Origin: Mobula hypostoma
Lineage: Eukaryota
Length of the DNA stretch: 64,000 nucleotides
Direction: 5' to 3'
Assembly (NCBI RefSeq): GCF_963921235.1
Contig: NC_086108.1
Coordinates: 13,578,001-13,642,000 of the forward strand
The notes under the pieces are model-generated. The model ran no database searches. It was not told the origin of the DNA and saw only the letters and a program-made list of their open reading frames with translations. Of the stretch, positions 1,235 to 49,074 are shown one piece after another. Every line of letters starts with the position of its first letter. Within the stretch, counting starts at the first letter, position 1. Made by a program: the position numbers and the translations under genes.

Positions 1235-3250
1235 AGAGAAGAGACAAGAGGTCCACAAGAGAAAATTTAGAGAGAAAGGTACAGAACTGGAAAACAGGAC
1301 CTCCAGGGTAACAATCTCAGGATTGCTGCCTGTGCCACTCACCAGTGAAAGCAAGAACAGGATGACTTGGCAGATGAATACATGGCTGAGGAACAGGTGC
1401 AGGGGCAGTGTCTGAGGTTTATGGATCACTGGTATCTCTTCTGGGGAAGGCATGACTTATTAGGTTACAAGCAGAGGTAGTGTTTAGTGAGATCATTGGG
1501 AAGGACAAGCAGATGATAGTGGAAATTGCAATCAGTGCGCTGGGTGTGGAGATAAAAGATTGGAAGGTGTGACGCTGTGGGTATCATGAAGTCATAGCTG
1601 AAACATAAAATTGACCCTGATGGGAGTTACTTACATGCCTCCGAACAGTAGCCAGGAGGTGCTTTACAAATTACAGCGGGAGATAGAAAAAACATGTCAT
1701 AGGGGACTTCAATGTACAGTTTAGTTGGGAAAATCAAGTTGGTGCTAGATTCCAAGAGATGGCTTTTTGGAGCAGCTTGTAGTGGAGCCGATTAGGGGAT
1801 CAGCATTTCTGGATTGCGAGTTGAGTAATGAACCAAGTACAATTAGGGAGGTTAAGGTAATGGAGCCCTTAGGAAACTGTGATGATAATATGTTAGAATT
1901 CACCCTGCAATTTGAGAGGGAGAGGCTAACAATAGATGTATCTATATTGCAGTGAATTAGAGGCGGGAGAGAGAAGTTGGCCAAAGTTGAATGGAATGGG
2001 GGACTAGCAAAGATGATTGCAGAGCAGCAGTGGCTGGTGTTTCTGGAAGCAATTCAGAAGGCACAGGACAGATACAGCCCAAGGAAGAGGAAGTATTCTG
2101 AAAGGCAGAATTGCGCAACCATGGCTGACAAAGGAAGTCAAATCCAACATAAAAGCAAAAGAATAGGTATATAATAGAGCAAAAATTAGTGGGAAGTTAG
2201 AGGATTTAGAAATGTTTTAAAAACCAACTAAATAAACCATAAGGGTGGAAAGAAGATGAAACAAAAAGGTAAGCTAGCCAATAGTATCAAAAATGATACC
2301 CAAAAGATTTTTCATATTATATAAATAGTAAAATAGAGGTCAGCGTTGATATTGGACTGCTGGAAAATGAAGCTGGAGAGATAGTAATGGGGGACAAGGA
2401 AATGGTGAACAAATGGAATAAGTGTTTGCATCAGTCTTCACTGCGGAAGACACTAGGGGGCTGAAGTAAGTGCAGTTGCTATTGCTAGGGAGATGGTGCT
2501 TAAGAAACTGAAGGGTGTGAAGTAATTCACCTGGACCTAATTTTCTACACCCTTGGATTCTAAAAGAAGAGATTGTGGAGGCATTAGTAATGATTTTTCA
2601 AGAATCAATAGGTTCTGGCATAGTTCCGGAGGACTGGAAAATTGCAAATGTCACTCTGCTCTTCGAGAGGGAGGAAGGCAGAAGAAAGGAAATTATAGTC
2701 CAGTTAGCGGTTGGGAAGATGATGGAGTCTATTCTTAGGGATGTAGTTTTGAGGTACTTGGAGATACATGATAAAACAGGCAAAAGTCACTATGGTTTTC
2801 TTGAGGGAAAATCTTGCCTGACAAATCTGTTGGAATTCTTTGAAGAAATAACAAGCAGGATATTGAACGCTCTGGGCCTGCAGTCGTTGGAGCTTAGAAG
2901 AATGAGAGGAAATTTCACTGAAACCTATTAAATGTTGAAAGGCTTAGATGGAGTGCACAAGAGGAGGTTGTTTTCTTTGGTGGGGGAATCTACAACTACA
3001 GGGCACAGCCTCATCATAGAGAGACATCCATTTAGAACAGAAATCAGGAGGAATTTCTTTACCCAGAGGGTGGTAAATCGGAGGAATTCATTGCCACAGG
3101 TGGAGGCCGGGTTACTGGGTACATTTAAGCTGGCAGTTGATAGGTTATGGAGATAAGGCAGGAGAATAGGGAGAGGGGAAAATTGATCAGCCATAATGAA
3201 ATGGCTGAGCATACTTGATGGGCCAAGTGGCCTAATTCTCATGTTTCTCG
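1235..3250 (+). mobile_element. Degraded CR1 LINE with ORF1 esterase remnant, endonuclease and 3' tail; RT core deleted near 2860
   Basis: Motifs VTISGLLPVP, EPLGNCDDNM, VPEDWKIANV and KSCLTNLLEFFEE run directly into LGLQSLELRRMRG, followed by a CR1 3' tail. Confidence 0.85.
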
Positions 3251-16185: not shown

Positions 16186-17217
16186 CACAAAGGTTGGGGG
16201 TGTTGTGGATAGTGTGGAGGGCTGTCAGAGGTTACAGCAGGACAGCGATAGGATGCAAAACTGGACTGAGAAGTGGCAAACACGAGGAAATCTGCAGATG
16301 CTGGAAATTCAAGCAACACACAAAAATGCTGGTGGAACGCTGCAGACCAGGCAGCATCTACAGGAAGAGGTACAGTTAACGTTTCGGGCCAAGAGATGGA
16401 GTTCAACCCAGATAAGTGTGAGGTGGTTCATCTTATAGGTCAAATATGATGGTAGAATATAATATTAATGGTAAGACTCCTGGCAGTGTGGGAGGAGCAG
16501 AGGGATCTTGGGGTCTGAGTCCATAGGACATACAAAGCTGCTGCGCAGATTGACTGCGTAGTTAAGGCGGCATATGGTGCACTGGCCTTCATCAACCGTG
16601 GGATTGAATTCAAGAGCTGAGAGGTGATGGTACAGTTATATAGGACCCTAGTCAGACCACCTTGGAGTACTATGCTCAGTACTGGTCACCTCACTACAGG
16701 AAGGATGTGGAAGCAATAGAAAAGGTGCGGAGAAGATTTACAAGGATGTTGCCTGGATTGGGGTGCATGTCTTATGAGAATAGGTTGAGTGAACTTGGCC
16801 TTTTCTCCTTGGAATGACGGAGGATGAGAGGTGACCTGATAGAGGTGTATAAGATGATGAGAGGCACTGATCGTGTGGCTAGTCAGAGGCTTTTTCCCAG
16901 GGCTGAAATGGCTAACATGAGAGGGCACAGTTTTAAGGTGCTTGGAAGTAGGTACAGAGGAGATGTCACGGGTAAGTTAGTTTGTTTGTTTGTTTGTGTT
17001 TTTTTTATACAAAGAGAGTGCTGAGTGCGTGGAATGGGCTGCCGGGAACGGTGGTGGAGGTGGATACAACAGGGTCTTCTAAGAGGTTCCTGGATAGGTA
17101 CATGGAGCTTAGAAAAATAGAGGGCTAACCCAAGGTAATTTCTAAAGTAAGTACATGCTCGGCACAGCATTGTGGGCTGAAGGGCCTGTATTGGTTGTAG
17201 GTTTTCTATGTTTCTAT
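16186..17217 (+). mobile_element. CR1 3' fragment that itself carries a PLE terminal-repeat fragment (about 16279-16394)
   Basis: gagaagtggca|gatggagttcaac is interrupted by aacacgaggaaatctgcagatgctgg...; the tail is tttctatgtttctat. Confidence 0.85.
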
Positions 17218-17436
17218 GGGAGGGGACACCAGCAGGAATGACAGCAGAACAGTAATGGCTGGAGTTTCTGAGAACAGTTTGGAAGGCATGGGATAGACAC
17301 AATCCCAAAGATGAAGTAGTATTCGAAAGGGAGGATGACGCAACCATTTCTGACAAAGGAGGTGAAATAAAGTATACAAGTCAAAGGGACGGCATATAAT
17401 ATAGGAAAAACTAGTGAAAAGTTAGAGGATTAAGAT

Positions 17437-18107
17437 GGTTCTACATCCGCGGGTCAACCAACCACGGATCGGGATGGAAAAAAAAATCCGTAAGTTCTCT
17501 CCAGCACTCGTTGTTTGAGCACAGATCCTGACATTAGTATTATTGAGCCTCCTCCAAAGCATCTTTATTCCCTAAACAATACAGTGTAACTACTATTTAC
17601 ATAGCATTTCCATTGTATTAGGTATATAAGTACTGTAATCTAGAAATGATTAAAAGTATTACTCGTTGTTTGAGCATTGTTTGCCTCGCGTCTTGTTCGT
17701 TCGCTCGCTCGCTACTAGTGTTGTGAGCGAGAGGAAGGAGTTCAAGGCTAGTAAGGGATGGCGCTACAGCCTCAAGAACTTAAACATCACGGAAGAATTG
17801 TCATCGGCTGATGCCGAGGCAGCATCAGCGTTCCCAGAAGAGCGACAATGGTTGTGTCTGTACTGAACATATACAGAGTTTTTTTTTGTCATTAGTCCCT
17901 AAACAATACAGTATAACAACTATTTACATAGCATTTACATTGTATTAAATATAAGTAATCTAGAGATGATTTAAAGTATACTGGAAGATGTGCACAGGTT
18001 ATATGCAAATACTATGCCATTTTATATAAGGGACTTGAGCATCCACGAAATTTGGTATCCGTGGGGGGTCCCGGAACCAAACCCCCGCAGCTACAGAGTA
18101 CCGACTG
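17437..18107 (+). mobile_element. Non-autonomous Tigger/pogo DNA transposon (MER2/Tigger3-like) with a transposase remnant
   Basis: ORF FKASKGW..YSLKNLNITEELSSADAEAASAFPEE is a pogo/Tigger motif. The right end ccgactg is followed by TA, and the terminal sequence resembles MER2/Tigger3 from memory. Confidence 0.85.
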
Positions 18108-20114
18108 TACTTAGGAAATACAGGCTGCAATTAATTGCAGTTCAGAAGTATGTATGAAGGAGAGTATTCAATAGTTTTGTAAGCTGTCTCGGAAGGATGG
18201 GGTTTCGGGGTACATGGAGGTGCATTATAAAGTAGGCCAAAATCAGCACGGTTTCCTTAGGGGGAAATATTGCCTGACAAATCTGTTGGAATTCTTTGGG
18301 GAAATAGCACGCAGGATAGACAAAGGAGAGTCGGTGGATGTTGTGTACTTGGATTTTTAAAAGGTGTTTGACAAGATGCCACACGAGGCTGCAGAACAAG
18401 ATAAGAGCCCATAATATTACAGGAAAAATACTAGCATGGAAATCAGATTTGGTGACAGGCAGGAGGCAAAGAGTAGGAATAAAAGGGGGCCTTTTCTGGT
18501 TGTCTGCCACTGTCTAGTGGTGTTCCATAAGGGTTGGTATTGAGACTTCTTTTTATGTTATATGTCAACGATTTGGATGATGGGTAGGAAGTCTGCAGAA
18601 GTACTTTGACAGATTGGGAGAATGGGCAAAGAAGTGGCAGATGGAATATTGTGTAGAGAAGTGTATAGCCATGCACTTTGGTAGAAGGAATGAAGGCACA
18701 GACTGCTTTCTAAATCTGCAGAACAGTAAAATATCAAAGGTGCAAAGGAACTTGGGAGTCCTTGCCCCTAATGGTTAATTTGCAGGTTGAATCAATGATA
18801 AGGAAGTCAAATCTAATGTTAGCATTCATTTCCAGAGAACTAGAGTATAAGAGCAACGATGTGATGCTGAGGCTTTAGAAGACATTGGTCACACTGCATT
18901 TGTAGTACAGTAAACATTACTGGGCTCCTTACCTAAGAAAAGATGTGCTGACATTAGAGGAGGTTTACGAGAATGATTCCAGGAATAAAAAGATTAATAT
19001 ATGGGGAGTGTTTGATGGCTCTTGGCCAGTACTTGCTGGAGTTTAAAAGAACAAGGTGGGATCTAATTGAAATATATCGAATATTGAAAGGTCTAGACTG
19101 AGTGAATGTGGACAGGATATTTCCTATAGTTGGTGAGTCTACAACTAGAGGGCACAACCTCAGAACTGAGGGATGTCCATTTAGAACAGAGCTGAGAAGG
19201 AATTTCTTCAGCCAGAGGATGGTGAATCTGTGAAAAAGCAGAGGTTAATGGGTTCTTGGTTAGGGCATCAAAGATTACGGGGAGAAGGCAAGGGGTTGGG
19301 ACTGAGAGGGATAATAAATCACCCAAGATGGAATGTTGGAGCAGACTCAACCGCCCAAGTGGCCGAATTCTGCTTCAATGCCTTACAGTCTTACTCCTCC
19401 AGGTATTCACTTGACCCAAACTGCCTGTAATTGACCTTTGCCTCATTTTTCCTGATAAGAACATCCATACCACCCATCAAGGGTTAACTACTCTTGCCAG
19501 CCTTGCCCTTCACTCTATCAGGAACATGCAGATCTTGAAGTTTTGATAACTCACTTTCAAAAGTCTTCTACTTGCCACGTGTCCTTTTGGCTGCAAACAG
19601 CCTATTCCAATCAACTTTTTCAAATTCCTGTCTAATACTATCAAAACTTGCCATGCCCCAATTTTTGAACTTTAATTCATGGACTAGATCTGTCCCTTAC
19701 CATGACTAATTTACATCATTAAGGACCTTCACCATACAAGACAGATTTTGAACAAACCATGAACATTACCTCAATTTTTGCACAACTTATTTTTTAATAT
19801 TTCTCATTGTATCTGATAGTATTTTTTATGTATTACACTGTACTGCTGCCACAAAACAAATTTCATGACATGTCGGTGATAACAAATATGATTCTAATCA
19901 CCTGTCCCAAAGTGCTGCCTCTCCAGGTCCAATCAAAGGTGTAATTGTTCATTTTGTCTGTGTTTTTTTTACCATTGTCAGTCACTGCTGGATACCAAGG
20001 ACATCAAGCACAGCAGGGCTATCCCATCAACAGCAATGGAGCTGCCGTTGCTGTGTAATTTGCTAGACTTGCTGTGTAATGTTGTGCTGAGACAGTGCAC
20101 AATCCAACAAGTTG

Positions 20115-22868: not shown

Positions 22869-24492
22869 CAGTGGCATGCAAAAGATTGGGCAGCCCTGGT
22901 CAAAATTTCTGTTACTGTGAATAGCTAAGCGAGTAAAAGATGATCTGATTTCCAAAAGGCATAAAGTTAAAGATGACACATTTAATATTTTAAGCAAGAT
23001 TACTTTTTTATTTCCATCTTTTACAGCTTCAAAATAACAAAAAAGGAAAAGGGCCCAAAGCAAAAGTTTGGGCACCCTGCATGGTCAGTACTTAGTAACA
23101 CTCCCTTTGGCAAGTATCACAGCTTGTAAACGCTCTCTGTAGCCAGCTAACAGTCTTTCAATTCTTGTTTGGGGGATTTTCACCCATTCTTCCTTGCAAA
23201 AGGCTTCTAGTTCTGTGAGATTCTTGGGTCGCCTTGCATGCACTGCTCTTTTGAGGTCTATCCACATATTTTCGATGATGTTTAGGTCGGGGGACCGTGA
23301 GGGCCATGGCAAAACCTTCAGCTTGCACCTCTTGAGGTAGTCCATTGTAGATTTTGAGGTGTGTTTAGGATCATTATCCTGTTGTAGAGCCATCCTCTTT
23401 TCATCTTCAGCTTTTTCTTTCCCCAAACGGTATAATGTTTGCTCCCAGAATTTGCTGGTATTTAAATGAATTCATTCTTCCCTCTACCAGTGAAATGTTC
23501 CCTGTGCCACTGGCTGCAACACAAGCCCAAAGCATGATCGATCTATCCCCGTGCTTAACAGTTGTAGAGGGGTTATTTTCATGAAATTCTGTACCCTTTT
23601 TTCTCCAAACATACCTTTGCTCATTGCGGTCAAAAAGTTCTATTTTAACTTCATCAGCCCATAGGACTTGTTTCCAAAATGCATCAGGCTTGTTTAGATG
23701 TTCCTTTACAAACTTCTGACGCTGAACTTTGTGGTGAGGACGCAGGAGAGGTTTTCTTCTGATGACTCTTCCACGAAAGTCATATTTGTGCAGGTGTTGC
23801 TTCACAGTAGAACAGTGCACCACCACTCCAGAGTCTGCTAAATCTTCCTGAAGGTCTTTTGCAGTCAAATGGGGGCATTGATTTGCCTTTCGAGCAATAC
23901 TATGATGAGCAATTCTCTTGGAAGGTTTCCTTGGTCTTCTACACCTCAACTTGACCTCCACTGTTCCTCTTAACTGCCATTTCTTAATTACATTACGAAC
24001 TGAGGAAACGGCTACCTGAAAACACTTTGTTATCTCCTTATAGCCTTCTCCTGCTTTGTGGGCATCATTTATTTTAATTTTCAGAGTGCAATGCAGTTGC
24101 TTAGAGGAGCCCACGGCTGCTGATTGTTGGGACAAGGTTTGAGGAGTCAGGGTATTTATAAACCTTTGAAATTTGCATCACCTGGCCTTTCTAACGATGA
24201 CTGTGAACACGCCACAGCCCTAACAAGCTAACTAAGGTCTGAGACCTTGGTAAAAGTTATCTGAGAGTTCAAATCTCTTAAGCTGCCCAAACTTTCGTAT
24301 GGTGCTCCTTTCCTTTTTTCCACTCTAAGATTGTACAAAAGAAAAATAATACACTAATCTTGCTTAAAATGTTGGAAAGAATGTTTCATCTTTAACTTTA
24401 TCGCTTTTGGAGATCAGTTCATCTTCTACTCACTAAACTATTCACAGTAACAGAAATTTTGACCGGGGTGCCTAAACTTTTGCATGCCACTG
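22869..24492 (-). mobile_element. Full-length Tc1-like transposon, family A, with a frameshifted transposase
   Basis: TIRs CAGTGGCATGCAAAAG with TA TSDs. Transposase motifs VLWADE, QDNDPKH and SPDLNIIE. It is inserted in a CR1 tail. Confidence 0.95.
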
Positions 24493-25724: not shown

Positions 25725-27238
25725 CGTGTTCATTTATTTGTTGAGAAAAATGATCCAATATTACATGTATTTGTTGAAAAAAGTATGCGAATCTTTGCTT
25801 TCAGTAACTGGTAAGACACCCTTGTACAGTAATAATATCAAACATTTCCAGTAACTGTTGACCAGTCCTGCACATTGGCTTGGAGGATCCTAGCCCATTC
25901 CTCCATATGAAACTGTTTTAACTCTGGGATGGATGGTGGGCTTCCTTGCATGAACTGCTTGCTTCAGGTCCTTCCACAACATTTCTATAGGATTAAGGTC
26001 AGGACTTTGAATCAGTCATTCCAAATTTTCTTCTTTTTAAACAATTCTGTTGTTGATTTACTCGTCTTTTAAGTCATTGTCTTGTTGCATTATCCAACTT
26101 CTATTAAGCTTCACATGACAGACTGCTACCCTGACATTTTCCTATAAAATGTCTTGATACAATTTTGAATTCATTGTTCCCTCAATGATTGCAAGCTGTC
26201 CAAGCCCTGAGGCACCAAAGCAGCCCCAAACCATGATGCTCCTTCCACCATGCCTCACAATTGGGATGAGGTTTTGGTGTTGGTGTGCAATGCCCCTTTT
26301 CCTTCAAACATGGCAATGTGCATTCCTGCCAAAAATTTAACGTTTGTTTCAGCTGTCCAGAACATTGTCCAAGTGTTGTAGACACATGAGCAGAGAATTC
26401 AACAAGTTCCAGAGATTTCTGTAGGTTTTTTTTGCTGTTACCCTTAGGTTCTTTTTCACCTCCTTCAGCTTTGTACATTGTGCTCTTGGTGTGATCTTTG
26501 CAGGATGCCCACTCCTAAGCTGAGTAGCAATTGTACTGAGTTTCCTCCATTTGTTGAGAATTCCTCTTACTATGGACTGATGAACATTCAGGTCTTTAGA
26601 AATGTTTTTGTAGCCTTTTCCAGCTTCATGCATCGTGTACACGAATAGATTTTTCTTGAGAAGAGCAGGCTCTGTCAATAACCTGACTTGGTGTGTCTTT
26701 GTTTTTTTAAGAGCAGGGCACCTCTACAACCCACACCTCTAATCTCATCTCTTTCATTGGAACACCCGAATCCAAATAGCTTTTGTAGAAGGCATTACCC
26801 TAGAGGTTCACGTACTTACTTTTTCCAACAAGTACATGTAATATTGGATCATTTTTCACAATAAATAAATGAACAAGTACAACTTTTTTGTGTTATTTAT
26901 TTAATTGGGTCCTCCTTATTTAGTTTTAGGACTTGCATGAAGATCTGATCACATTTTAGGTCATATTTATGCAGAAATAGAGAAAATTAGAACATAGAAC
27001 ATACAAATCCACAGCACATTTCAGGCTCTTCAGCCCACAATGTTGTGCCGAACATGCAACCTACTCGAGAAACTGCTTAGAATTTCCCAACTGCATAGCT
27101 CTCTATTTTTCTAAGTTCCATGTACCTATCTAAGAGTCTCTTAAAAGACCCTATTGTATCCGCCTCTACCACCGTTGCTGGCAGTGTATTCCACGCACCC
27201 ACCACTCTACAGGGTTCACAAACTTTCTAGCACCACTA
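25725..27238 (-). mobile_element. Tc1-like transposon, family B, deleted and carrying a CR1-tail insert (about 26990-27207)
   Basis: One TIR (ttcacaaactttctagcaccact) followed by TA. Transposase remnant HEAGKGYKNISK; homologous to 46123-49074. Confidence 0.85.
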
Positions 27239-28478: not shown

Positions 28479-29909
28479 CAAACCACATTTCCAGAAAAGT
28501 TGGGATAATTTCCAAAATGCAAAAATAAAAATCTGTGATATGTTAATTCACATGAACCTTTATTTAACTGACAAAAGTACAAAGAAAGATTTTCAATAGT
28601 TTTACTGACCAACTTAATTGTATTTTGTAAATATACACAAATTTAGAATTTGATGGCTGCAACACACTCAACAAAAGTTGGGACAGAGGCATGTTTACCA
28701 TTGTGTTACATCACCTTTCCTTTTAATAACACTTTTTAATCGTTTTGGAACTGAGGATACTAATTGTAATAGATTTGCAATTGGAAATTTTGTCCATTCT
28801 TGCTTGACATAAGACTTCAGCTGCTCAACAGTCCGTGGTCTCCGTTGTCTGATTCTCCTCTTCATGATGCGCCATACATTTTCAATAGGAGATAGATCTG
28901 GACTGGCAGCAGGCCAGTCAAGCACACGCACTCTGTGTCTACAAAACCACGCTGTTGTAGCCCGTGTAGAATCTGGTCTGGCATTGTCCTGCTGAAATAA
29001 GCATGGACGTCCCAGGAAGAGACGTCACCTTGATGGCAACATATGTCTCTCTAAAATCCTAATATACGCCTCAGAGTCAATGGTACCTTCACATACATGC
29101 AACCCACCCATGCCGTGGGCACTGATGCACCCCCATACCATCACAGATGCTGGCTTTTGCATCTTTCACTGATAACAATCTGGATGGTCGTTTTCATCTT
29201 TGGCACGGAGAACTCGACGCCTGTTTTTTCTGAAAACTAGCTGAAATGTGGACTCATCTGACCACAGCACACGGTTCCACAGTCTTTTGGTCCTTCTGAG
29301 ATGAGCTCAGGCCCAGAGAACTCGCCAGCATTTCTGCATAGAGTTGATGTATGGCTTCCTCCTTGCGTAATACAGTTTCAAGTTGCATTTCTGGATGCAG
29401 CGACGGACTGTGTTGAGTGACAATGGTTTTCCGAAGTACTCCCGAGCCCAGGTGGCTATAATTGTCACAGTAGCATGACGGTTTCTTAGGCCGTGCCGCT
29501 TGAGGGCTCGAAGATCATGCGCATTCAACAGTGGTTTCCGACCTTACCCTTTACGCACTGAGATGTCTCTGAATTCTCTGAATCTTTTCACAATATTATG
29601 TACTGTAGATGTTGAAAGACCTAAATTCTCTGCAATCTTGCGTTGAGAAATGTTCCTTTTGAACTGACTAACAATTCTCTCACGAACTGTTTTAACTCTG
29701 TCCCAACTTTTGTTGAGTGTGTCGCAGCCATCAAATTCTAAATTTGTGTATATTTACAAAATACAATTAAGTTGGTCAGTAAAACTATTGAAAATCCTTT
29801 CTTTGTACTTTTGTCAGTTAAATAAAGGTTCACATGAATTAACATATCACAGATTTTTGTTTTTATTGCATTTTGGAAAATATCCCAACTTTTCTGGAAA
29901 TGGGGTTTG
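28479..29909 (-). mobile_element. Tc1-like transposon, family C, with ~210-bp TIRs and internal deletions
   Basis: Ends CAAACCACATTTCCAGAAAAGTTGGGA and TCCCAACTTTTCTGGAAATGGGGTTTG with TA TSDs; motif WPAASPDLSPIENVW. Confidence 0.93.
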
Positions 29910-46122: not shown

Positions 46123-49074
46123 AAGTGGTGCTAGAAAGCTTGTGAACCCTGTTGAAAAGTAACATTAGCAAATTTGCAGATGACACAAAGCTGGGCGGCA
46201 GTGTGAAACGTGAGGAGGATGTTATGAGAATGCAGGGTGACTTGGACAGGCTGGGTGAGTGGGCAGATGCATGGCAGATGCAATTCAATGTGGATAAATG
46301 TGAGGTTATCCACTTTGGTGGTAAGAACAGGAAGGCAGATTATTATCTAAATGGAGTCAAGTTAGGAAAAGGGGAAGTACAACGAGATCTAGGTGTTCTT
46401 GAACACCAGTCACTGAAAGCAAGCATGCAGGTACAGCAGGCAGTGAAGAAAGCTAATGGCATGCTGGCCTTCATAACAAGGGAAATTGAGTATAGGAGCA
46501 AAGAGGTCCTTCTGCAGCTGTACAGGGCCCTGGTGAGACCACACCTGGAGTACTGCATGCAGTTTTGGTCTCCAAATTTGAGGAAGGACATTCTTGCTAT
46601 TGAGGGAGTGCAGCGTAGGTTCACAAGGTTAATTCCCAGGATGGGCGGGACTGTCATATGTTGAAAGATTGGAGTGACTGGGCTTGTATACACTGGAATT
46701 TAGAAGGATGAGAGGGGACCTGATTGAAACATATAAGATTATTAAGGGATTGGACACGCTGGAGGCAGGAAGCATGTTCCCGCTGATGGTTGAATCCAGA
46801 ACCAGAGGCCACAGTTTAAGAATAAGGGGTAGGCCATTTAGAACGGAGTTGAGGAAAAAATTTTTCACCCAGAGAGTGGTGGATATGTGGAATGCTCTGC
46901 CTCAGAAGGCAGTGGCGGCCAAGTCTCTGGATGTTTTCAAGAAAGAGATGGATAGAGCTCTTAAAGATAGCAGAATCAAAGGTTATGCGGATAAGGCAGG
47001 AACTGGATACTGATTGTGGATGATCAGCCATGATCACAGTGAATGGCGGTGCTGGCTCGAAGGGCCGAATGGCCTACTCCTGCACCTATTGTCTATTGAA
47101 TTTTTCTATTTCTCCATAAATATGATCTAAAATGTGATCAGATCTTCACACAGGTCCTAAAACTAAATAAAGAGAACCTAATTAAATAAGTAACACAATA
47201 AACATTATACCTGTTCATTGTTTATTGAGAAAAATGATCCAATATTACATCCACTTGTTGGAAAAAGTATGTGAACCTCTGGGGTCCTACCAAAGTGTCT
47301 TGGCCCGAAATATCGACTGTACTCTTTTCCATAGATGCTGCCTGGCCAGCTGAGTTCCTCTAGCATTTTGTGTGTGTTGCTTAGATTTCCAGCATCTGCA
47401 GATTTTCTCTTGTTTGCGACTGAACCTTTGGGGTAATGGCCTCTAAGAAAACCAACTGGAGTCAGATGGTCCAATCAATGAGATGAGACCGGAAGTGTGG
47501 TTTGTAGATTTTCTGCATTAATTAAAGTGTGGTCGATTCTCAATCTAAGTCACAATAATTAACAAACACAATCTGCTGAAATAATACACTAACAATTGTA
47601 CTTCTCATCAGTATTGAGTGTACCATTTAAACAATCACAGACTAGGTTCAGAGAACTATGTAAATCTCTGGGGTAATGCCTTCTACAAAAGCTATTTGGA
47701 GTCAGGTGTTCCAATCTACATTGGACGTGTGGGTTGCAGAAATGCCCTGCCTTATAAAAGACACACACAAAGTCATGTTACTGACACAGCCTGCTCTTCT
47801 CAAGAAAAATCCGTTTATGTGTACCATGCCTCAATCAAAACAACTTTCAGAGGACCTTAGAAGAATTGTAGATATGCAAGAAGCTGGAAAAGACTACAAA
47901 GGCATTTCTAAAGATCAGAGTGATCATCAGTCCACAGTAAGAAAAATTGTCTACATATGGAGAAAACTCAGTACCATTGCTACTCTCCTTAGGAGTGGGC
48001 ATGCTGCAAAGATCACACGAACAGCACAACATGCAATGCTGAACGAGGTGAAAAAGAACCCAAGGGCAACAGCAAAAGACCTTCATAAATCTCTAGAACT
48101 TGCTCAAGTCCCTGTTCAAGTACCCACTCTAAGAAAACCACTGAACAAGAATGGTGTTCATGGAAGGACACCACGAAGGAAACCACTGCTCTCCAAAAAA
48201 CTGTCTCAAGTTTGCAAATGACCACTTGGATGTTCTACAACACTTCAGGAATAATGTTTCGTAGACAGCTGAGACAAAAGATGAACTTTTTGGTGGAACT
48301 GCACTTTGCTATGTTTGGAGGAAAAAGGGGACTGCACACCAACACCAAAACCTCATTCTGTGAAGCATGATGAAAGGAGTATCATGGTTTGGGGCTGCTT
48401 TGCTGCCTCAGGGCCTGGACAGCTTGCAATCATTGAGGGAACAATGAATTCAAAATTCTATCAAGACATTTTATAGGAGAATGTCAGGATAGCAGTCCAT
48501 CAGGAAGCTTAATAGAAGATGAATATTGCAACAAGACTGACTCAAAAGACAAGAGTAAATCAACAACAGAGTGGTTTAAAAAGAAAAAAAATTCTTGTTT
48601 TGGAATGACTGAGCCAAAGTCCTGATCTTAATCTTACAGAAATGCTTTGGAAGGATCTTAAGACCATAAGACCATAAGACAAAGGAACAGAAGTAGGCCA
48701 TTCGGCAAGCAAGTCATTCAAGGAAACCCACCAACGTCCCAGAATTGAAGCTGTTTTGCAAGGAGGAATGGCTTAAAATTCCTCCAAGCCGATGTGCAGG
48801 ACAGTTACTGGAAATGTTTGAAGTTATTGCTGTACAAGGGGGTCACACTGGTTACTGAAAGCAAAGGTTCACACACTTTTTTTGAACAAATAAATGTAAA
48901 ATTGGATAATTTTTCTCAATAATAAATTAAGAATAATGTTTTTGTGTTATTTAATTAATTGGGTTCCCTTTATCGAGTTTTGGGACTTGCATGACGATCT
49001 GATCACATTTTATGTCATATCTATGCAGAAATAGAGAAAATTCTACAGGGTTCACAAACTTCCCAGCACCACTG
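46123..49074 (+). mobile_element. Tc1-like transposon, family B, with nested CR1, PLE-repeat and other inserts
   Basis: TIR (c/a)agtggtgctagaaag at the left and ttcccagcaccactg plus TA at the right. Transposase ORF 47676-48221 (PQSKQLSEDLR...GRTPRRKPLL). Confidence 0.9.
46157..47095 (+). mobile_element. Young CR1 3' fragment inserted in a Tc1 TIR
   Basis: KFADD...RPHLEYC; TSD TTGAA (46152-46156 and 47096-47100); same subfamily as 10039-11487. Confidence 0.92.

Follow-up and report, generated by a model that had tools for sequence, protein, structure and literature searches.

Horizontal transfer very probably brought one lineage of Tigger (pogo) elements into rays and, separately, into placental mammals, where its descendants are likely MER2 and MER2B, to judge from the near identity of a non-coding 3′ end in the two groups. 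In a 64,000-nucleotide stretch of the Mobula hypostoma genome (hereafter the window), the lineage is represented by a 5′-truncated, non-autonomous and inactive copy of 671 bases at positions 17437–18107. An earlier note made from the letters of the window alone had placed a Tigger element at this position and had quoted MER2-like strings from its reverse complement. The coordinates were borne out both by alignment to a family consensus and by a genome search with 17400–18110, which gave 2186 first-look candidates (40 scored, 30 fetched; best E down to 1e-231), and the quoted strings do lie on the minus strand. The element itself is oriented along the + strand, as seen from its transposase remnant at 17725–17843, and therefore the MER2-like part is its 3′ end. 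The copy and its surroundings are composed as follows (window coordinates).

17201–17436, + strand: left flank, a piece of an older LINE that matches window 1991–2210 and other loci
17437–18107, + strand: 5′-truncated copy of a ~697-bp non-autonomous Tigger/pogo family, with 6.6% substitutions against the family consensus
17437–17521, + strand: what remains of the 5′ terminus and 5′ untranslated region; the left terminal repeat and the left TA are lost
17520–17659, + strand: displaced internal duplicate that combines the last transposase codons with the first part of the 3′ untranslated region (parent B 1986–2121), 89%; direct repeat D6
17661–17705, + strand: piece of the parent 5′ untranslated region (parent B 202–246), 93%
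17725–17843, + strand: transposase remnant, about codons 131–176 (end of the HTH_Tnp_Tc5 domain and linker), with an 18-base deletion
17847–18107, + strand: non-coding 3′ segment common to mammal-type copies (MER2-like)
18084–18107, + strand: right terminal inverted repeat, degraded
18108–18109, + strand: TA target-site dinucleotide, right side
18110–18500, + strand: right flank, same LINE family, a reverse-transcriptase-like region that matches window 2739–2862 within the open frame 2521–2931

The copy aligns to its own family consensus over 17444–18109 (89% with gaps), bases 17437–17443 match a longer 5′ variant of other copies, and the missing left terminal repeat amounts to ~22 bases. Only ~40 transposase codons are kept; over this remnant the family consensus is 99% identical to parent B, one of the two full-length parents described below. 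The two flanks match one LINE family, for which we assume a CR1-type label on the right side, and their order is that of another copy of this LINE in the window, less ~440–500 bases between them, so that a single deletion likely took the left end of the element together with part of the LINE.

Four Rfam matches were obtained on the element, all far below the gathering score (E 1.6–9.7). One of them, mir-4703 at window 17574–17623 in the duplicated segment, is weak (E 1.8, 17.8 bits versus a gathering score of 88) and could be a MER2-derived microRNA or chance. Elsewhere in the window, fragments that look Tc1-type transposase-like by eye were seen at 23085–24177, 26182–26723, 28695–29024 and 47664–48221.

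We built a 697-base family consensus, measured between the two TA dinucleotides, from 21 of the 30 fetched loci after excluding nine variant or interrupted ones. Copies are 4.3–9.1% diverged from it (2.6–6.4% outside CpG); since the analysis took the top-scoring copies out of thousands, the 4–9% divergence is a low-side estimate, and the ages are low-side as well. TA was present on both sides in 20 of the 30 loci, the window copy keeping the right TA only, and a 24–25-bp inverted match joins the ends of the family and parent consensuses. Also abundant in this genome are B-type deletion derivatives of 661 bases, of which 17 homogeneous copies (3.3–6.9% diverged) were seen in 30 loci. This 661-bp family is 98.7% identical to the window family over 464 bases, and the window family is set apart from it by a rearranged 5′ part with the transposase-tail duplicate; parent B, the 661-bp family and the 697-bp family have their ends in common. 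When ~340-bp copies were sought in 120 ray loci, three were shorter than 480 bp and none of these three had the mammal-type junction. A ~340-base MITE of the ray family was found at one of 60 loci (L303; G000:C36, about 7328563–7328900), with a junction unlike the mammal-type one. Pieces of the window family's ends were also noticed in two other Tigger families, at L041:2889–3022 (135 bases, 97%) and L057:3–145, which suggests that Tigger families may exchange such pieces.

The full-length parents were reached through the transposase. A 48-residue remnant from another copy (L008) led to P0001, an intact 607-residue transposase on a JGI contig (89%), with CENP-B_N, HTH_Tnp_Tc5 and DDE_1 domains and with catalytic residues D194, D308 and D341, i.e. 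DD32D, where the Tigger range is given as DD29–36D (PMC7386202). Searching the ray genome with 228 residues of P0001 gave 17 matches at 78–89% among 150 listed of 152. The consensus of parent A is 2460 bases long (7 loci) and that of parent B 2251 bases (5 loci, four copies being 3.9–5.6% diverged and one truncated). The proteins of A and B are 91% identical, their last 230 bases are 90% identical, and P0001 has 90% identity to parent B. Six loci were found with a pattern meant to reach parents beyond the deletion junction, all of them short copies.

P0001 and a second intact transposase, P0008 (611 residues), lie on JGI and Logan contigs of 2.1–2.4 kb; both are 90–93% identical to parent B and have a C-terminus longer than that of the ray parents. 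Their intact frames, longer C-terminus and level of identity to B suggest a third host for these two proteins. The 77 metagenome loci obtained for P0001 had best segments of 29–72% identity, none of them close. In a survey of annotated proteins, the next named relative was that of a skink (73%) and named mammals reached at most 63%; no mammalian parent transposase was seen among them. In a transposase tree drawn without a mammalian parent, the ray parents fall together with two intact proteins and with a clade of skinks (93/95, drawn open). Two further sets of proteins were noticed. P0044, from an elephant, joins a KRAB domain and a Tigger transposase that has 63% identity to P0001; in the tree it falls with a copy from the dugong. 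Ten ENA/Logan peptides (P0007 and P0031–P0039) are decayed readings of the same transposase, 63–78% identical to parent B, and could represent what is left of the parent transposon in a mammal.

Because gene callers often read through repeats, we searched proteins with the translated non-coding end. The query profile was a 45-codon reading of the non-coding 3′ end from nine ray copies, seven of them of the window-family type, and its matches (47 proteins and the best 150 of 1537 representatives) comprised 182 distinct sequences, which were picked by likeness to the ray query and hence favour less diverged copies. All figures for the comparison across species come from translated non-coding sequence. 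The majority residue of the 182 matches was that of the ray 661-base consensus at 58 of 59 non-CpG codons (nt 450–665), the single mismatch being a 4–4 tie at depth 10. At CpG codons 5 of 11 agreed, and the other six showed CpG-decay residues. About 74% of substitutions would be visible in translation, which places the divergence of the consensuses at no more than ~2.3–3.6% (rough 95% upper bound) and implies that ray and mammal-type consensuses would be at least ~96% identical.

About 25 of the compared codons lie upstream of the 45-codon query and the agreement holds there, so that the likeness is not only a product of ascertainment; the reading frames of the 5′ end are likewise in accord, albeit at low depth. 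A frameshift at a T run accounts for three seeming mismatches at nt 441–447, which lie outside the counted codons. The matches also discriminate between ray subfamilies: of the codons that tell the B/661 type from parent A by residue, they follow the former at 9 of 10, the one that departs being a CpG codon, and of those that tell it from the window family, they follow it at 5 of 5. Individual copies are more distant, with a mean identity of 68.5%, which corresponds to ~16% DNA divergence in a simulation.

One of 20 clusters of 3′-end matches that were looked up carries an organism name, and one of 30 clusters of matches or relatives names a mammal. The named protein, P0321 (KAL0616128.1), is from the titi monkey Plecturocebus cupreus and equals the ray consensus at 34 of 46 codons and the window copy at 24 of 39. 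The flanks of eight matches, P0321 included, cluster together and are presumably Alu readings. The same heptapeptide as in these Alu-type flanks has been printed from human genes (PMC4160624). In the ESM Atlas, the flank of P0174 found only 'Chordata' clusters (0.94–0.95) and the translated 3′ end had no match. Flanks of other matches we take to be ruminant, cetartiodactyl or pig SINEs. Eleven hand-picked matches with Alu-type flanks agreed with the ray sequence at 40 of 46 codons and five hand-picked ones with ruminant/cetartiodactyl-type flanks at 35 of 40, with all misses of both sets at CpG. Pfam gave nothing for six of six spurious peptides, blastn of 17850–18102 gave no match to plasmids and phages, exact element patterns were absent from viral contigs, and exact patterns in GTDB genomes gave none and then one 20-base chance match (L211).

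Could such a likeness be inherited? A Tigger lineage present in the jawed-vertebrate ancestor might have remained mobile in both lines with hardly any change and expanded in separate bursts. Tigger transposases do occur across vertebrates and invertebrates (protein search; PMC7386202), and the present lineage, surveyed in annotated proteins, may extend to intermediate groups (birds, reptiles, amphibians, teleosts, sharks). However, cartilaginous and bony vertebrates separated more than 409 My ago (bioRxiv 10.1101/2025.02.26.637739), and vertical descent would require less than about 4% change of non-coding DNA over twice that time, which is implausible when two ray subfamilies are already 10% apart. 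Moreover, even at the protein level no named relative from lizards, turtles or fishes exceeds 73% identity, and we consider vertical descent very unlikely. Strong selection on the 3′ segment was rejected as a cause, since such constraint is at odds with the 10% divergence of parents A and B from each other there.

Contamination was likewise rejected. Most matches do come from metagenome or sequencing-run contigs, as might be the case if mammalian DNA had entered the ray assembly or if the database matches were themselves ray sequence. On the other hand, the ray copies are found on many large contigs and inside native LINEs, they are ~5% diverged, and the annotations of three genera of rays include one fused copy. 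The matches, with a median identity of 68% and a 95th percentile of 79%, also contrast with the top ray copies read in that frame (78–96%), and one of them is the named monkey protein. An artefact of this kind is thus extremely improbable. Horizontal transfer, which the earlier note had raised as possible, of a lineage common to rays and placental mammals is supported by an identity far above what host divergence would lead one to expect, given the agreement at non-CpG codons and the ray-subfamily control, and by the subfamily-diagnostic codons.

The name under which that note had placed the element, MER2/Tigger3 (Golem), held in part. The likeness to mammal-type copies stands at the translated level, but the label likely merges two families. 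GOLEM (Tigger3) stands apart from MER2 and MER2B in a Repbase table (PMC5753468), and the Tigger3 consensus is 3029 bases long with a median divergence of 15.7% in humans (RepeatMasker rows in the supplement of PMC1914374), against parents of 2251–2460 bases. Tigger3 belongs to the same family and is of similar age in humans; its separate listing and its length set it apart and make the Tigger3 part of the label probably wrong. MER2 and MER2B are non-autonomous human repeats of the Mariner/Tc1 class and of Tigger type (PMC5753468; supplement of PMC1914374). Human MER2 is 345 bp long with a median of 18.5% from its own consensus, and MER2B 336 bp with 19.2% (same supplement), so that, at ~16% per copy, decay of the copies alone explains the distance of the mammal-type matches.

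Eighteen matches span both the 5′ and the 3′ parts. The lengths implied by their junctions are 322–325 bases in three (337–340 with a 15-base 5′ variant), 332–333 in two and 292–320 in eleven, two giving nonsense; junction-based lengths are 3–50 bases below those of MER2/MER2B. We take the sequence of the 3′ segment to be that of MER2, and the name was chosen on this presumed likeness together with the rough fit of length. Both the 5′ end and the last ~265 bases on the 3′ side are common to the mammal-type matches and the ray family. The window family differs from MER2/MER2B in its length of ~697 bp, in its transposase codons and rearranged duplicate, and in lying ~5% from its consensus; it lacks the 336–345-bp non-coding structure and is likely a sister derivative of the MER2/MER2B lineage rather than a member. 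The mammal-type copies may instead be a relative of MER2 under another name, such as Tigger3/Golem or another Tigger derivative, in which case the transfer would still hold. A presumptive name and lengths that fit roughly leave room for this, as does the old RepeatMasker class 'MER2_type', which covers all Tiggers. None of the 182 matches maps inside the transposase frame, however, as expected of short non-coding derivatives like MER2/MER2B, and the 3029 bases of Tigger3 do not fit the parents; we regard another name as improbable and retain MER2/MER2B.

The ray elements resemble known Tigger/pogo elements in their TA target site and in ~24-bp terminal repeats starting with CAG (PMC7386202; PMC9219625), pogo/Tigger terminal inverted repeats being 8–33 bp long (PMC9219625), and in the CENP-B_N, HTH_Tnp_Tc5 and DDE_1 domains and DD32D spacing of P0001, their closest intact relative. 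The family thus shows the TA duplication, the short terminal inverted repeats and the CENP-B-type head with a DDE core, head and core being those of P0001. Its terminal repeat and protein start were absent from the available part of the supplement of PMC9219625, and the repeat was in none of the fish, chondrichthyan and mammal rows examined in Table S1 of that paper, a table with no myliobatiform ray in the part available. The same paper reports Tigger transfer between Eutheria and Chondrichthyes, linking Helogale with Carcharodon and Scyliorhinus. These events are of the same kind and join the same two classes, but they concern different elements and rest on coding-sequence distances with a 70% identity floor, whereas here an identity of ~96% or more is inferred for non-coding DNA. 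Transfers of this kind have therefore been published for other Tiggers, and the present one is less surprising for it. MER6 is also comparable as a human Tigger-class MITE with parts traced to non-mammalian vertebrates; it differs in being a SINE chimera, for which a vertical origin near the boreoeutherian root is favoured and transfer is given as an alternative (PMC6887750). In the literature searched we found no paper on MER2 outside mammals or on the ray family, which Repbase, Dfam, Smit and Riggs 1996, Pace and Feschotte 2007 or a 2020 survey of transfers among vertebrates may already contain; MER2 is not mentioned in the accessible parts of PMC3525145 and PMC3268980, and a 15-base motif of the element was absent from a literature text search.

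One ray copy appears to have become part of a gene. At L208:7553–8544 (G000:C71), a TA-flanked deleted copy joins transposase codon ~190 directly to the MER2-like 3′ segment, and in the NCBI models of Mobula, Hemitrygon and Hypanus this copy is the first coding exon of a GTF2I-like gene, contributing the DNA-binding head of ~190 codons. The junction residues are the same in all three genera, and the exon is 88–92% identical to parent B. For exons 2 and 3 of the Mobula protein P0004, our genome has counterparts with 100% identity, and the first exon matches P0004 up to the splice, with the predicted splice donor apparently lying in the first bases of the MER2-like segment. A second GTF2I-like paralogue was seen at L210:5103–7785 (G000:C71:44919633–44921781), where the frame of another Tigger, with 596 open codons and 42% identity to P0001, lies ~1.3 kb upstream of its exon; this is possibly an independent fusion.

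In Tc1/mariner/pogo elements, the transposase of a full copy binds the terminal repeats, excises the element and inserts it at TA, and short copies ride along. The parent transposase, with its CENP-B-type DNA-binding head and DDE core, would accordingly have recognised the terminal repeats of the ray family and moved its short copies in trans, and the window copy would have become immobile on the later loss of its left end. The same parent lineage would have invaded an ancestor of primates and ruminants, where deletion products of ~300–345 bp may have arisen with junctions different from those in rays. The difference between ray and mammal junctions suggests that a longer element moved and that each host made its own derivatives.

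In rays, the insertion common to Hypanus, Hemitrygon and Mobula indicates that the invasion predates the split of these genera, which probably falls in the Late Cretaceous; no date for the stingray–devil ray split was found in the literature searched. For mammals, a divergence of 18.5% at 2.2e-9 per year corresponds to ~84 My, and primate-type and ruminant-type hosts point to the boreoeutherian root at 91–102 My (rate and root age from PMC6887750). MER2 itself has been dated near the divergence of mammalian orders (PMC1914374). The invasions would thus have taken place about 85–100 My ago in mammals and before the stingray–devil ray split in rays. Most likely both rays and mammals received the element from a third host, and direct transfer from ray to mammal is possible. 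We lean, by a narrow preference, towards a fuller reading in which the ray parent is the lost autonomous parent of MER2/MER2B, a single Late Cretaceous wave reached the boreoeutherian and myliobatiform ancestors, and the third host keeps P0001/P0008; the MER2-like segment would then have given the GTF2I-like fusion its splice donor, and the fused factor may bind MER2-type ends.

MER2 and MER2B account for 8377 and 2224 fragments of the human genome, respectively (supplement of PMC1914374). If the transfer is true, horizontal origin would be supported for a textbook human repeat, and a transfer between land and sea vertebrates would be datable from both sides. The intact frames in two datasets, P0001 and P0008, point to a possible donor source. 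The genome of the ray is slow-evolving, and with a likely MER2/MER2B parent still at ~5% from its consensus it would name the transposase that spread these repeats.
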